Shown here one piece after another: positions 3,114 to 61,232 of a DNA stretch of 64,000 nucleotides. The first letter of the stretch is position 1. Each line of letters starts with the position of its first letter. The stretch lies in assembly GCF_044324875.1 (NCBI RefSeq), contig NZ_CP172185.1. One strand, written 5' to 3'. The DNA is from Escherichia coli. GTDB lineage: Bacteria; Pseudomonadota; Gammaproteobacteria; Enterobacterales; Enterobacteriaceae. The notes under the pieces were generated by a model. The model saw only the letters and a list, made by a program, of their open reading frames with translations, was not told where the DNA came from and did not search any database. Both the position numbers and the translations under genes were made by a program.

Positions 3114-3893
3114 CTATGAAAAATGTTTAAGTCGATATTGAACCGGACTCATACCATCGAGTTTCTCTTTAATGCGATGGTGATTGTAGTATTCAATGTA
3201 ATCAATTATATCTTGCTTTAGATGATGTAACTTATTGTATTTATTTAGATAGTAACATTCTGATTTTAATGTACTAAAAAAGCTTTCCATTGCTGCATTA
3301 TCTAAGCAGTTACCACGTCGGGACATGCTTTGTGTTATGCCATTATCACTCAACCAACGTTGCCAACGAGGCATCTGATATTGCCACCCCTGATCACTAT
3401 GCAACAAGGGCTTATCGTCTTTATTGAGTTGTTCTACCGCATCTAATAGCATGCTCTTTACCATTGATGCTAATGGGCGCTCAGTAAGGTTATATGAGAC
3501 TATTTCTCCATTATACAGGTCCATGATTGGTGATAAATAGAGCTTCCTGCCATCGACCTTAAACTCAGTGACATCTGTTACCCACTTTTGATTTGGGCGG
3601 TCAGCATAAAATTGTCTCTTCAGTAAATTATTACAAGTTCGCCCCTGTTCTCCACGATAGGCACGGTACTTCTTGCGCCTGATAAGTGAGCTGATACCCA
3701 GTTCCTTCATTAACTTTCTGATGGTTTTACCATTAAGTAAAATGCCCTCGTTACGGCAGGCAAGTCTGATGCGTCGATAACCATAACGCCCTTTATGCTG
3801 ATGGTATATTCTCAATATTACTTGTTTAACAAGTTGATATGGATCTGGCGCATTAAGGCGTTTCACGTGATAGTAAAATGTACTACGTGGCAA
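3114..3893 (-). CDS. IS3-family transposase OrfB (DDE integrase core); probably expressed by frameshift from orfA
   Basis: 259 aa with …WVTDVTEF… and …HSDQGWQY… motifs typical of the IS3 DDE domain. Confidence 0.8.
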   Translation of the reverse strand: MPRSTFYYHVKRLNAPDPYQLVKQVILRIYHQHKGRYGYRRIRLACRNEGILLNGKTIRKLMKELGISSLIRRKKYRAYRGEQGRTCNNLLKRQFYADRPNQKWVTDVTEFKVDGRKLYLSPIMDLYNGEIVSYNLTERPLASMVKSMLLDAVEQLNKDDKPLLHSDQGWQYQMPRWQRWLSDNGITQSMSRRGNCLDNAAMESFFSTLKSECYYLNKYNKLHHLKQDIIDYIEYYNHHRIKEKLDGMSPVQYRLKHFS

Positions 3894-5548: not shown

Positions 5549-7096
5549 ATGCTTAAAAGACGTGATGCTTTTTTAAAGAAAAGCGCGCTGGCAGTGAGTG
5601 TGGCCCTGCTGCTCTCATCTCAGGCTCAGGCTCAGGATATTTTATTCGGACCGATTCAACCTGGCGAAGATAATAGCTTTCTTGTTGGAGATTCAGTAGC
5701 TGGCCGTTCGTCTGGTGACATAAGAAATGTATGGTTGGTGGGTGATAATTCTTTTTTATTAGACTCAAACAGGACTGTGCTTTTGGGGAATAATTCTGGT
5801 GTTGTGAGCTCTCCGGGAAGTGTGAGTCTGGGGCATGATGCACTTATTGCTGACTCTGAATGGGGGACTGTTGCAGGAAAAGAAGCGTCACTTATTTCTT
5901 CTCGTCAGAGCTCGGCAATTGGTGCGTTTTCATCTGTGCAGGATTCTACCAGTTCTGTAGCTCTGGGCCATGGCTCACAGGTGTCGGGAGAAAATAACGT
6001 GGTATCTGTTGGTGCCGGGCCTGAGGGATATGGAGAGAGTGTCAAAGGAGCACCGGAAACCCGCCGGATTATAAATGTGTCTGATGGTATCAATAACACA
6101 GATGCAGCGACGGTAGGGCAACTGAATGAACGATTTGATGATGCACAGGTCTTTTTGTTGCAGACGAATGAAAGAATTGACGAGACAGATAAACGTCTTT
6201 CAACAGTTCATGCTGAACTCAGCAGGGATATTATTGCAGGCACATCGGCAGCGGTGACGTATACAGATGTAACAGCGCTTGCACTTCAGGATGAGATAAA
6301 GGATGGGACGAACAAAGTACGTGATGAGTTGAAATCACAGGGAGACAGTCTGCGTGGTGAGATAGGCGGTGTATACAGAGATGCCCGTGCTCATACTGAC
6401 AGTCAGGTCACAGCAGTACGTGATGAACTGAAGGCAGAGGGAGACAGTCTGCGCGGTGAGATAGGCGGTGTATACAGAGATGCCCGTGCTCATACTGACA
6501 GTCAGGTTACAGCAGTACGTGATGAACTCAGCAGGGATATTATTGCAGGCACATCGGCAGCGGTGGCGTATACGGATGCATCTTCTCTTGCTCTTCAGGA
6601 TGAAATAAAAGAAAAAGCGGATGAAACAGTTCAGGTTTCCCGGGCTTATACAGATAAAAGTGTACGGGATGCCCGTAAAGAAGCGAAAAGCCAGGCAGAA
6701 CATCTCAGCGATGTGCTTGTGAAGAACAGGGCGCAGACGGATGCAGCAATAGCCTCAAATACAGCAGCGATAAGGAATAACAGTCATCGTCTGGATTTGA
6801 CGGAAGCCTGGCAGAAGATGGCGACAGAGAGAATGAATAATATGCAGGAGCAGATTAAAGAGAACCGGAAGGAGTTAAGGGAGAGTGCAGCCCAGAGCGC
6901 GGCACTGGCAGGTCTTTTCCAGCCATACAGTGTTGGAAAATTTAACGCGACAGCAGCCGTTGGTGGTTACCGTGATGAGCAGGCCATTGCGGTGGGCGTG
7001 GGCTACCGTTTCACAGAGAATGTGGCAGGAAAAGTTGCAGTTGCTGCAGGTGGGTCATCCGCATCGTGGAATGCTGGTGTGAATTTTGAGTTCTGA
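5549..7096 (+). CDS. Trimeric autotransporter adhesin (YadA-like C-terminal anchor) with internal repeats
   Basis: Signal peptide [28 protein letters not shown] after a GGAGA ribosome-binding site. Coiled-coil stalk with repeats. C-terminal membrane anchor …[19 protein letters not shown]…GVNFEF. The ORF track starts 18 codons upstream at 5495. Confidence 0.75.
6320..6517. repeat. Two near-identical 99-bp in-frame tandem repeats inside the adhesin gene
   Basis: GGAGACAGTCTGCG(T/C)GGTGAGATAGGCGGTGTATACAGAGATGCCCGTGCTCATACTGACAGTCAGGT… recurs with 99-bp period (encoding [30 protein letters not shown] twice). A second repeat pair (…[13 protein letters not shown]…LALQDEIK) brackets them. Confidence 0.85.
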
Positions 7097-18455: not shown

Positions 18456-19535
18456 TTACTGCATCATGACCTCACGAACGAAATCTTTTTTGAGCTGTGT
18501 ACTGTACGCTTTGCCATAAAACTCCACCGTGGGCTCCGGGATCTCATTCAGATCCGGACGGAGCTGTTTGTTCATCGGCGTGGAGCCGAAGACTTTACTC
18601 AGTGCATGTTGCGTTTCAGGCTGAATCAGCCAGTTGAGGAATAAGCGTGATGCCGCCGGATGTGGGCTGTTGGCGGCAATGGCAGCGATGTTACCGCCGC
18701 CAGGCATGCCAAACTCCGGTACGTAAAATTTCAGCCGCGAATTGATAGCCCCGGTTTTTTGTAGTCCGACAAGATGATCTTCCCAGGATGGTGTCAGCAT
18801 CAGCTCGCCGTCATTCAGGCGTGTCAGACTATCAGCACCGGAGGCCGTGCGGGTAATTTTGTCCTTATTAGCGGCAAACCACTGCCAGCCTTTCTGCCAG
18901 TTTTTCACCACTGCCGGGTCAACGCTCTCCGCTTCGCTGTTAAACGTGTCGCCCTGAGTAGTGACGATGCGCTGGATAAAGGCTTCCCCAGCGCCGCCGT
19001 TGTTCGGGTCGTTATAGCCGAACTTTTTCGGGTTGGCGTCGATAAAGCTCTGCAACTGCTCCAGCGTTTGTGGCAGCGCCCGGTCACCCATCTGCTGCGG
19101 GTCGTAAGCAAATCCGGTCTGGTTGCCCCAGAACGCCACGGCATAACCCTGGGTGTCAACGTTCTGAATCTGGTGAATGGCGTCGCCATAGCCCGGCAAA
19201 TCGTCCACCTTCGCCAGCGCTTTCGCTCCCATTGCCACTGGCAGTTGCGCAACAGACAAGGCGATAACATCTATTTTACCTTTTTTTTTCCCCGCTTCTG
19301 CCAGCAACTTGTTCACGTTTCCGTCGATATTCCCTTCCGGGATGCGCACCTTAACACCGTACTGCTGCTCAAAATCCTTCACAAAGCTGCGCCACTGCGG
19401 CTGTAAGTACCAGACGTTAAAGGTCACGCTGCCCTCTTTTTTCGCTTGGGCAATCAGGTCGGGGCTATCCGCCGCCGTTGCCAGCGAGCTGCACAGCAGG
19501 CCGCCCGCCAGAATCATCACTGTTTTTTTCATCAC
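18456..19535 (-). CDS. ABC transporter periplasmic substrate-binding protein (PotD/PotF-type)
   Basis: 359 aa, signal peptide, last gene of a four-gene ABC operon on the minus strand. Confidence 0.75.
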   Translation of the reverse strand: MMKKTVMILAGGLLCSSLATAADSPDLIAQAKKEGSVTFNVWYLQPQWRSFVKDFEQQYGVKVRIPEGNIDGNVNKLLAEAGKKKGKIDVIALSVAQLPVAMGAKALAKVDDLPGYGDAIHQIQNVDTQGYAVAFWGNQTGFAYDPQQMGDRALPQTLEQLQSFIDANPKKFGYNDPNNGGAGEAFIQRIVTTQGDTFNSEAESVDPAVVKNWQKGWQWFAANKDKITRTASGADSLTRLNDGELMLTPSWEDHLVGLQKTGAINSRLKFYVPEFGMPGGGNIAAIAANSPHPAASRLFLNWLIQPETQHALSKVFGSTPMNKQLRPDLNEIPEPTVEFYGKAYSTQLKKDFVREVMMQ

Positions 19536-19553
19536 ATTATCTCCTGTAAAAGG

Positions 19554-20438
19554 TCAGGCTTTTCCCGTGGATTGCGACAGATAGTTCCCCTTCAGCAACT
19601 TCTCAATGATGACCATCAGGATGACATTGGGGATCACCAGAATCATCGACACCACCGCCGCATCCGGGCGGACGAAGGAGTAGCCAAGGAAAGAGTAAAG
19701 AATGGTCGGAACGGTGATAAAGTCCGGCGCGCCCAGCACGTATGAGATGCTGAACTCTTCCAGGCTTCGCACCAGACAAAAAATCAGCGCCGCCAGGAAG
19801 CTCGGTTTCAGCAGCGGCAGATAGGCATTGCAGAAGGTGTCCCACGCGCCGGAGCCCAGGTCGCGGCTGGCGTCGATCAGATCCTGCGGCACCGACTTAA
19901 ACCCCGCAGACATAATGCGGATCGAATAGGGCAGCGTCAGTACCGTATGGCCGATAACAATGCTGATAAACGCGTTGTCGATATTGAGGTTGATCAGCAT
20001 GGCGCTGAAAAAAATCCCGATCAGCATCCCCGGCATCACCAGCGGGATCAGCGTCAGCATCTCCGCCACCGCCTTACCGCGAAAGGTCATGCGCCCGAAG
20101 GCATACGCGGTGGGTAGCGACAGCAGCAGGCTGGCGACCGCTACCGCAGGCGCAATGGTGTAGCTGTTGAACAGCGCCTCGGAAAGCGAAGTCTTTTCCC
20201 ATACCAGCAGCCAGCGGCTGAACGACAGCACGGGCGGGAAGATATCCGGGTAGCTCCACGGATGGGCCGGGTCAACCAGCGACCAGAGGATCGCCATGCC
20301 GAACGGCATGCCCAGCCAGATCAGATTAGCGACCACGAAGAAGATCAGCGAAATCGTCACCACCCGGCAACCGTTGGCAGTGTGGCTCATTTGACCTCTC
20401 CTTTGCGGGTGGCGAACGGGGTAATCAGTGTGGCTCAT
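19554..20438 (-). CDS. ABC transporter permease (second permease); N-terminus carries a 16-aa duplication
   Basis: 294 aa; MSHTDYPVRHPQRRGQ-MSHTANGC…; the second Met is likely the ancestral start. Start overlaps upstream stop. Confidence 0.75.
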   Translation of the reverse strand: MSHTDYPVRHPQRRGQMSHTANGCRVVTISLIFFVVANLIWLGMPFGMAILWSLVDPAHPWSYPDIFPPVLSFSRWLLVWEKTSLSEALFNSYTIAPAVAVASLLLSLPTAYAFGRMTFRGKAVAEMLTLIPLVMPGMLIGIFFSAMLINLNIDNAFISIVIGHTVLTLPYSIRIMSAGFKSVPQDLIDASRDLGSGAWDTFCNAYLPLLKPSFLAALIFCLVRSLEEFSISYVLGAPDFITVPTILYSFLGYSFVRPDAAVVSMILVIPNVILMVIIEKLLKGNYLSQSTGKA

Positions 20439-20476
20439 TTGACCTCTCCTTTGCGGGTGGCGAACGGGGTAATCAG
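20381..20476. repeat. Perfect 48-bp tandem duplication across the permease-permease gene junction
   Basis: TGTGGCTCATTTGACCTCTCCTTTGCGGGTGGCGAACGGGGTAATCAG occurs twice in tandem (20381-20428, 20429-20476), bounded by the short direct repeat CAGTGTGGC. Confidence 0.9.
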
Positions 20477-55958: not shown

Positions 55959-56477
55959 TTAAAGCAGGCCGTGTTCGGCAAAGGAGAACACCCGGCTGCC
56001 ACCGACTATCAGATGGTCCGGTACCCGGATATCCACCAGGGCCAGTGCCTGTACCAGCCGTTCCGTGATAAGCCGGTCAGCCTTACCGGGTGTGACTTCA
56101 CCGGACGGATGATTGTGCGCCAGCACCACGGCAGCGGCATTGTGGTACAGGGCGCGTTTAACCACCTCCCGGGGATGGACTTCCGTGCGGTTGATGGTGC
56201 CGGTGAAGAGGGTTTCACCGGCAATCAGCTGATTCTGGTTGTTCAGGTACAGCACCCGGAACTCTTCCCGCTCCAGTCCTGCCATGTGCAGAATCAGCCA
56301 TTCCCGTGCCGCATGCGTGGAGGTGAAGGCCACACCGGGTTCATGAAGATGGCGGTCCAGGGTTTTCAGGGCACGCTGAATGAGACTGCGCTCGCCGGGC
56401 GTCATCGCGCCGGGCAGAAAGGAAATCTGTTGCATAACCTCACCCCTCAGTCGATGATGCGAATAATGGCGCTGCAT
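55959..56477 (-). CDS. RadC-like JAB-domain protein (YeeS/YfjY-like)
   Basis: …VVLAHNHPSGEVTPGKADRLITERL… (JAMM metalloprotease-like HxHPSG motif). Confidence 0.8.
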   Translation of the reverse strand: MQRHYSHHRLRGEVMQQISFLPGAMTPGERSLIQRALKTLDRHLHEPGVAFTSTHAAREWLILHMAGLEREEFRVLYLNNQNQLIAGETLFTGTINRTEVHPREVVKRALYHNAAAVVLAHNHPSGEVTPGKADRLITERLVQALALVDIRVPDHLIVGGSRVFSFAEHGLL

Positions 56478-56920
56478 TCCGGATGCTGCAGGGCGTAATC
56501 CCGCAGCCGGTAATAATGGACCGTCATGGCATAATGCTCCGTACTGCAGGCGTGATGACTGTAGGCCATCAGACAGGCGGCAATGCCGGCGGCTTCCGGG
56601 CTCATTTCCGCGCGGTTACCGTTCATGGCGTTAAACAGCACCCATTTTTCGTCATCATCGTCACCCGGTTCGGGAGCCATAAATGCGCCGCCGTTGTTCA
56701 GGGTGTACATATTCCAGATACCCCCACTGTAGTCTTCACACAGACGGTCCATCCAGCCGAAGACACGGGGCTCCAGGGTCACCCACTGCGGAATGAGGCC
56801 AAAATGCTGCGGCCAGAAGCTGATGCGCTGTTCGTCAGGCACCGTGGTGGCAACCAGCTGAGGTGTATTATTCCCGGATGCAGTGGCTGCGGAAACAGAG
56901 TCATGCGAAACCGTTTTCAT
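56447..56920 (-). CDS. Antirestriction protein (ArdB/KlcA-like)
   Basis: 157 aa; acidic, …NMYTLNNGGAFMAPEPGDDDDEKWVLFNAMNGNRAEMSPEAAGIAACLMAYSH…. Confidence 0.75.
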   Translation of the reverse strand: MKTVSHDSVSAATASGNNTPQLVATTVPDEQRISFWPQHFGLIPQWVTLEPRVFGWMDRLCEDYSGGIWNMYTLNNGGAFMAPEPGDDDDEKWVLFNAMNGNRAEMSPEAAGIAACLMAYSHHACSTEHYAMTVHYYRLRDYALQHPECSAIIRIID

Positions 56921-56933
56921 AAGTGAAATCCTT

Positions 56934-56973
56934 AAGTGAATAAGTGAATAAGTGAATAAGTGAATAAGTGAAT
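56934..56973. repeat. Octanucleotide tandem repeat (AAGTGAAT)x5 in the 5' leader of the antirestriction gene
   Basis: Five perfect 8-bp units at 56934-56973; the start codon is at 56918-56920 with AGGA between repeat and ATG on the minus strand. Confidence 0.9.
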
Positions 56974-57013
56974 AGATAAGAGAGAAAAGGCTGCGCCTCT
57001 CAGGCAGAAGGCA

Positions 57014-57832
57014 TCAGCGCATACTCACCAGCAGCGTTTCCGCCATCACCCACAATGCACGATTGAGCTTAATGTCGGTGTCGATACTGTGAATGGCCCG
57101 GGTGTGGATACGTTTTCCTTTTGCGCTGCGTCCCTGAAGACCGCCTTTGAGCATATTCTCCTGGATGGTCTGATAAGCACTCCACAGGTCCCTGCCGTAA
57201 TCCTCCCGGCGTCGTGGTGTCAGAATGTCGGCGGTGGTGACGGGCTGATGTTCGTCACCATAACGGTAAGTCAGTGCCGCCTGTGCCAGCGCCTGACGAG
57301 CCGGTGGTGGTAAAATCAGCGACTGCATGGCATCACGCTTCTCCTCAATCCGGTCAAACACGCCCACAACCTCGTAAGCCCCTTCGATGACCCTGTCCAC
57401 CACGTTTCCCCGGTGCGGGACACGCACCTCTCCGAGAGACTGACCACAGACACATCCGTTCTGACACACGAACCGGAAGTAACCCGGCAGCATCTGGTAG
57501 CTGGAGGTACCGTCATGGGAGTTCAGCAGGATGATTTCAGGAACGTGCTGTCCGTTTATCTCCCCGTCACGGCGCAGACGCAGCATGTGCTTTGTGTATC
57601 CCCGGCGTCCCGGGTCACGCACGCGGGTCTGGCAGGCAAAGAACGGCTGAAAGCCTTCCCGCTGCAGGCTTTCCAGTACGGTGATGGTGGGGATGTATGT
57701 ATAGTTCCGGCTCCGGGAGGTGTGCTTATCTTCCCCGAAAATCCCGGGCACATGGTGCATCAGCTCTTCACGGGTCAGCGGACGGTCACGGCGTATCTGG
57801 TTCGCATAACCGAAACGACTGGCTAATCGCAT
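57014..57832 (-). CDS. DUF932 (YfjQ-like) protein
   Basis: 272 aa; conserved island-module neighbour of the GTPase gene. Confidence 0.65.
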   Translation of the reverse strand: MRLASRFGYANQIRRDRPLTREELMHHVPGIFGEDKHTSRSRNYTYIPTITVLESLQREGFQPFFACQTRVRDPGRRGYTKHMLRLRRDGEINGQHVPEIILLNSHDGTSSYQMLPGYFRFVCQNGCVCGQSLGEVRVPHRGNVVDRVIEGAYEVVGVFDRIEEKRDAMQSLILPPPARQALAQAALTYRYGDEHQPVTTADILTPRRREDYGRDLWSAYQTIQENMLKGGLQGRSAKGKRIHTRAIHSIDTDIKLNRALWVMAETLLVSMR

Positions 57833-60904: not shown

Positions 60905-61232
60905 TTCTATCTGAATTCTCTTTTAACGACACATCAGAAAAAATGCAACACCCACATTGGTGATTTTCATTTGCTTACAAAACCATACTTTAAATTACAA
61001 ACAAATAATACACACACCTCGGATAAAATCACGTCGAAATTTAATTATTTTAAATAAATAATGCATTAAAAATATCCATAAATTATCCAGCTGAATATTT
61101 TTTATATGAAAAACATGCTGTCGTTCGTTGTCTTGCGTATTCCGCTCTATTCGATCACGGATTGGCATCGAAGTCCGATCAGCGATTCGCATCCATTCGA
61201 TCAACCGGGAACTTAACTTTTTCTACCGCTTT

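Follow-up and report, generated by a model that had tools for sequence, protein, structure and literature searches.

The closest described system to the locus studied here is the microhomology-mediated tandem duplication (MTD). Long GC-rich arms are favoured in this class of mutation (PMC8639346) and, in S. pombe, the reversion of such duplications is about 100 times commoner than their formation (Dan et al. PNAS 2021, PMC8639346). Among E. coli genomes, about 13,000 variable tandem-duplication loci are reported, mostly flanked by arms (Wei et al. bioRxiv 2026, 10.64898/2026.02.28.708716). Two other systems are also comparable: the phase-variable contingency loci of bacterial pathogens, whose tandem repeats of 1-10 bp shift in copy number, and the operons of PotB/PotC-like type I ABC importers, whose membrane-subunit genes are joined by translationally coupled ATGA overlaps.

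The sequence analysed is a window of 64,000 nucleotides from Escherichia coli (contig NZ_CP172185.1), in which a 48-bp tandem duplication is located at the junction of two ABC permease genes. As in the MTDs, a single-copy segment of 48 bp bounded by identical 9-bp arms passes from one to two copies without spacer, the copy number varies within one species, and single-copy alleles recur on the same haplotype, as the high reversibility of this class leads one to expect. Nothing mechanistic distinguishes the locus from the MTDs. Here the duplication spans a stop/start overlap; it preserves the reading frame of the downstream gene and is silent for the upstream one, unlike the ssp1 duplications described for MTDs, which inactivate by frameshift. 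With the operons of PotB/PotC-like importers the locus shares an overlap of the permease 1 TGA with the permease 2 ATG (in the single-copy allele), a Shine-Dalgarno sequence situated within the upstream gene, and a junction between the ATPase and permease 1 that is overlapping too; in the duplicated allele, however, the TGA overlaps a new ATG that lies 48 nt before the original start. With the contingency loci it shares a tandem-repeat copy number that shifts back and forth in close relatives, but the unit is 48 bp long, just one or two copies are seen, and the change in length, a multiple of 3, switches neither a reading frame nor a promoter. The duplication is an ordinary reversible polymorphism, which adds one more example to a familiar type of mutation and is one of thousands in E. 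coli. In itself it is of little importance; it offers a clean natural case of a duplication that would have been inherited and then precisely reverted among near-identical haplotypes.

TRF reports a single array at the junction (period 48, 2.2 copies, 100% matches, 0 indels, score 210), which is the only perfect long-period array of the window. The first-pass annotation had placed a perfect duplication at 20381-20476, and this corresponds to a different phase of the same array. Its 105 bp are composed of 48+48+9 bp, head-to-tail and without spacer or filler bases. On the plus strand, the arm CAGTGTGGC is found three times (20378-20386, 20426-20434 and 20474-20482) and the unit reads CAGTGTGGC...GGGGTAAT. 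This exact periodic match of 57 nt cannot be attributed to chance. Concerning the arms themselves, 237 seed pairs of 9-mers repeated less than 100 bp apart were detected in the window, for about 22 expected at random. Close 9-mer pairs are thus common and potential arms are present everywhere; the pair of the array is one that fired. The features of the locus are collected in Table 1.

Table 1. Features of the duplicated junction and of the genes around it (positions in the window; H-D is one of the two operon haplotypes described in the text).
Feature	Position	Strand	Remarks
Tandem array, two 48-bp units and a trailing 9-bp arm	20378..20482	-	Minus-strand unit GCCACACTGATTACCCCGTTCGCCACCCGCAAAGGAGAGGTCAAATGA; TRF and sequence
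48-bp copy, upstream in the coding direction	20426..20473	-	Missing from single-copy genomes in the alignment; contains the end of permease 1 (15 sense codons, ATLITPFATRKGEVK, and the stop TGA, 20437-20435), a Shine-Dalgarno sequence GGAGAGG (20449-20443) and the additional upstream ATG gained by permease 2 (20438-20436)
48-bp copy, downstream in the coding direction	20378..20425	-	Sequence and PGAP annotation; contains the second Shine-Dalgarno sequence GGAGAGG (20401-20395) and the original ATG of permease 2 (20390-20388, start annotated by PGAP)
9-bp microhomology arm	20474..20482	-	Coding strand GCCACACTG, codons A-T-L of permease 1
Duplication-specific junction			Sequence GGTCAAATGAGCCACACTGATTACCCCG
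Single-copy H-D state			Whole interval, then ...CACACTGCCAACGGTTGCC
ABC ATPase, 355 aa, gene 1 of the operon	21298..22365	-	Stop overlaps the start of permease 1; ABC_tran 4e-36
ABC permease 1, 288 aa, BPD_transp_1, PotB-like	20435..21301	-	Pfam; stop TGA 20437-20435
ABC permease 2, BPD_transp_1, PotC-like	19554..20438	-	294 aa from the upstream ATG, 278 aa from ATG 20390
Periplasmic solute-binding protein, SBP_bac_8, 359 aa, final gene of the operon	18456..19535	-	E-value 2e-31
Glycerophosphodiester phosphodiesterase, divergent	22581-23411	+	Member of the conserved six-gene module
ROK-family regulator, divergent	23427-24539	+	Member of the conserved six-gene module

The two permeases display the BPD_transp_1 domain with Pfam E-values of 5e-14 and 3e-13. 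In NCBIfam they match PotB and PotC best, far under the equivalog cut-offs. The NCBIfam similarities considered for the substrate (PotB/PotC, PhnT2 and UgpC) are all sub-threshold and none was assigned; a glycerophosphodiester substrate is an idea whose sole basis is the conserved adjoining phosphodiesterase gene. All four ORFs of the operon are intact in the window. Elsewhere in E. coli, permease 1 is truncated by IS3 in two loci (L005 and L012), and frameshifts are found in the gene of the binding protein (L008 and L013) and in that of the ATPase (L011 and L015), some of which may be sequencing errors. The disruption of the operon in several genomes suggests that it is dispensable in E. coli. 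The complete module of six genes (ROK regulator and phosphodiesterase, divergent from the ATPase, the two permeases and the binding protein; 18456-24539) is also present on conjugative plasmids of Kosakonia cowanii (L049) and Vibrio scophthalmi (L050), and a tblastn search of plasmids recovered remoter homologues of the permeases on plasmids of Rhizobium and Agrobacterium. The E. coli module belongs to an IS-rich island adjoining sodC, an AbgT transporter and an S6 (SPATE) autotransporter protease, and most of the isolates come from poultry.

The locus was detected in 23 of 5,426 complete E. coli genomes. Three of them are duplicated (RefSeq CP033635, CP080260 and CP182371; strains ECCNB12-2 from chicken in Zhejiang, 135 from chicken faeces in Guangdong, and Br_112_kylling from Brazil) and the 20 others are single-copy, being exactly 48 bp shorter. 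Look-ups of the exact proteins, in each of which 24-25 contigs were read of the many on record, added at least 13 further independent duplicated assemblies, on contigs of 7 kb to 5.8 Mb. The duplicated assemblies derive from short as well as long reads; some are finished chromosomes, others short-read contigs of 7-42 kb. The single-copy genome AR_0085 differs from the window in this region solely by a gap of 48 bp and contains GCCACACTG twice, 48 bp apart. In the single-copy genomes, one arm forms the codons A-T-L of permease 1 and the other is localized directly past the ATG of permease 2. The 9-bp direct repeat that had been proposed to bound the unit, and slipped mispairing as the mechanism, are supported by these two arms, which precede the duplication. 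Outside E. coli, permease 2 of Salmonella and Klebsiella has 278 aa and starts with MSHTANGRR, and on the plasmid of Kosakonia cowanii the stop and the start of the two permeases are 2 nt apart and the repeat is absent. The single copy, for which the first reading proposed to search the orthologous loci, is thus the state of 20 of the 23 E. coli genomes and of the three other genera and, as judged from these sequences, it is the ancestral one. Permease 1 of Klebsiella ends with IALLITPF (IATLITPF in E. coli), so the upstream arm seems particular to the E. coli sequence.

The SNPs of the operon define two major haplotypes, H-S and H-D. The H-S set is composed of the 20 single-copy complete genomes and 10 further sampled loci, and every isolate carrying the duplication is H-D. 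The two haplotypes are separated by 14 fixed SNPs, from 18777 to 21388 of the window, of which nine are synonymous and five nonsynonymous; this is the normal pattern of purifying selection. Within H-D, at least three sub-haplotypes (alpha, beta and gamma) are distinguished by the SNPs 22306, 22031, 22023, 20052, 19356 and 18524, and each of them has duplicated and single-copy members. Four loci are true single-copy H-D, with overlapping permeases 1 and 2 and the 278-aa allele. Locus L027 has 0 SNPs over up to 6.8 kb with its nearest duplicated relatives (L018, L022 and L034), whereas 1 SNP separates L029 from L001, L019 and L021, L031 from L021, and L032 from L033. These alleles point to a precise return to the single copy, at 0-1 SNP from duplicated alleles in three sub-haplotypes; the direction of the change within H-D is deduced from parsimony and from the published asymmetry of the rates.

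The duplication carriers differ by about 0.15% over the operon (about 6 SNPs in 3.9 kb). At this divergence, 96 identical bases are uninformative, and the dating of the event by the identity of its copies was abandoned. The perfect identity had been read as the sign of a recent event, and this reading does not stand: the duplication is carried by three sub-haplotypes, in two provinces of China, in Brazil and in many other assemblies. Being common to the three H-D sub-haplotypes, it is older than this genome. It may be used as a lineage marker of one variant of a genomic island associated with poultry.

From these observations, we consider with a probability of about 85% that the locus results from a microhomology-mediated (slipped-strand) duplication of 48 bp, gained a single time on H-D, then inherited, occasionally lost by reverse slippage and near-neutral. 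The anatomy of the locus indicates that the ancestor would have held GCCACACTG twice, 48 bp apart. During replication, the nascent strand would misalign between the two 9-bp arms and the interval would be copied twice; faulty processing of Okazaki fragments, or another route that uses microhomology, may equally have formed the duplication. By parsimony, the duplication would then have been passed on during the diversification and spread of H-D, for the most part in E. coli associated with poultry. With 57 bp of perfect homology available between the two copies, one of them would occasionally be lost by reverse slippage, and such a loss would regenerate single-copy alleles otherwise identical to the duplicated ones. 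The simplest history that the sequences suggest is one gain on H-D before its diversification, followed by at least three precise losses.

Other explanations were weighed against this history. An artefact of reading or assembly might have produced the duplication or, conversely, the single-copy H-D alleles: short tandem repeats are liable to mis-assembly, and some of the single-copy H-D loci were assembled from long reads prone to errors (in L029, 2 nt are deleted from an A run). Apart from the window, however, about 16 independent assemblies from varied laboratories, countries and platforms carry the identical duplication; single 150-bp reads span the 105-bp array, and long contigs show both states. 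An artefact is therefore scarcely credible as the explanation of the locus. Concerning the single-copy side, three of the four H-D loci are on chromosome-scale contigs that are probably long-read, and L029 displays homopolymer-type indels; a collapse of the consensus in some of these assemblies is weakly possible. If both states are real, the three sub-haplotypes, each with both states at 0-1 SNP, could also derive from recurrent gains at a duplication hotspot, with a separate origin in each sub-haplotype and the single copy as the ancestral state of H-D. The arm is indeed long (9 bp) and GC-rich (6/9), a class reported to be far more prone to duplication than short AT-rich arms. However, H-S has an identical unit and identical arms and is about three times as abundant on record (3447 blocks, against 1070 for H-D), and the duplication was found in none of its 20 complete genomes and none of its 10 further sampled loci; moreover, the reported loss rates are 10- to 100-fold above the gain rates. 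The only candidates for an independent gain were H-S alleles with the 16-aa extension, found on 4 contigs. All are scaffolds of pig or poultry faecal metagenomes with mosaic H-D/H-S SNPs, and they were treated as chimeric assemblies of co-occurring strains and set aside. Recurrent gain appears improbable, although it is the least improbable of the alternatives.

The third alternative gives the change a selected function: the passage between one and two copies would tune the output of permease 2 through translational coupling, in a manner resembling phase variation, or the basic tail added by the duplication would compensate a substitution at residue 8. This residue is a Cys in H-D and an Arg in H-S, Salmonella and Klebsiella. 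R8C removed an Arg adjoining the first membrane helix, and the extension contributes three Arg. Furthermore, the duplicated state is the majority among the sampled H-D loci (about 17, for 4 single-copy) despite its expected instability; this sample is small and skewed to clonal poultry lineages. Against a function, the unit equals 16 codons and both permease ORFs are intact and in frame in either state, which leaves no on/off switch as in phase variation. The copy number is one or two in all the 48 loci examined, outside the multi-copy range of contingency loci, and an exact look-up of the 310-aa protein expected from three copies gave no allele on record. The operon also seems dispensable, with the frameshifts and IS3 truncations described above in several genomes. 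A selected change is in consequence very unlikely. The more precise proposal, in which one and two copies constitute a selected and reversible tuning device where an Arg-rich cytoplasmic tail, made by coupled ribosomes with two copies and not with one, restores the charge lost by R8C or shifts the subunit ratio, is a little less likely still; if it were true, the population would hold a heritable yet reversible setting of transporter activity.

The operon itself is duplicated in two assemblies, which each contain two copies at different chromosomal sites, one H-D with the duplication and one H-S (GCA_027274645.1, L028 and L041; GCA_974493445.1, L020 and L046). Among the H-D copies, patches of H-S type are confined to those two: 21073 G in L028 and 19281-19282 GG in L020. 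Their presence in exactly these two copies suggests gene conversion between the paralogous operons.

The first-pass annotation had described an in-frame duplication that spans the stop of permease 1 and the overlapping start of permease 2 and that provides permease 2 with two in-frame starts, and the sequence bears this out. The ATG at 20438 and the ATG at 20390 have an identical context from -45 to +12, with the same Shine-Dalgarno sequence. The upstream ATG adds 16 residues (MSHTDYPVRHPQRRGQ), the number given in the annotation, but the qualification of these residues as an N-terminal repeat holds just for four of them: MSHT alone repeats the true N-terminus, and residues 5-16 (DYPVRHPQRRGQ) form a new peptide, which the final 12 codons of permease 1 encode in the other reading frame. 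The extension has a net charge of +2, with three Arg and two His, and the first hydrophobic helix begins after residue 24 of the long form. The gene callers disagree over the start codon, a difficulty that the duplication illustrates: in the duplicated genomes PGAP starts permease 2 at the downstream ATG (278 aa), which results in a gap of 44 nt, while other gene callers choose the upstream ATG (294 aa). On record, the 294-aa sequence is found on 43 contigs and the 278-aa sequence on 591. The protein cluster of permease 2 at 90% identity also includes 288-aa sequences of Klebsiella permease 1 (P0003, P0006 and P0007), apparently through an artefact of the clustering, a point to consider whenever cluster sizes are used.

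Permease 1 has 288 aa in duplicated and single-copy genomes alike, with equal coordinates relative to the stop. As it stops at the TGA of the first copy, its protein is unaffected by the duplication. The ATGA overlap of the single-copy allele suggests translational coupling between the two permeases. In the duplicated allele, the stop of permease 1 overlaps the new ATG (again ATGA), where terminating ribosomes would probably restart and give the 294-aa permease 2. The original ATG, 48 nt downstream and provided with its own Shine-Dalgarno sequence, could still serve as the start of the 278-aa protein. An N-terminally extended permease 2 would be the product of coupling, should coupling operate. 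Relative to shuffled controls, the RNA of the junction is weakly structured (z +2.5 to +2.8). A structure masking either start site was sought at the junction and none was found; with such a weak fold, both start sites are predicted to be accessible. Within 20378-20482, no match to a terminator-like or promoter-like consensus was detected.

The N-terminus is assumed to be cytoplasmic in this transporter class. The extension precedes the first membrane helix, a position compatible with that side of the membrane, and it is predicted to be tolerated, with an effect that is probably neutral or nearly so. A comparable tail would be encoded by plasmid pVS127 of Vibrio scophthalmi (L050:3426-3500), where an in-frame ATG at 3426 overlaps the stop of permease 1 and is preceded by AAAGGAGAAG. 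This start would add a basic tail of 24 aa (MNTLANRSNSFKRFFKADREKTPK) to the orthologue of permease 2. The annotated start (3498) has no Shine-Dalgarno sequence and, from the sequence, it is probably placed too far downstream. The Vibrio tail suggests that long basic N-terminal tails are tolerated in the permease 2 family.

Other repeats are present in the window. A perfect direct repeat of 2,641 bp (32606-35246 and 61134-63774, 28,528 bp apart) probably corresponds to two copies of an insertion sequence, and each copy contains an imperfect tandem array of 23/47 bp (35115-35237 and 63643-63765). A tandem repeat of 99 bp (6316-6528; 2.2 copies, 93% identical), in frame by its length of 33 codons, is probably inside the gene of a repetitive surface protein. 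Finally, a perfect octamer microsatellite (TAAGTGAA, 5.2 copies) occupies 56933-56974, in the 93-bp interval between two ORFs; it follows the ORF 57832..57014 and immediately precedes the ATG of the minus-strand ORF 56920..56447. Such a placement, together with the perfection of the repeat, would suit a promoter or leader tract of variable copy number.
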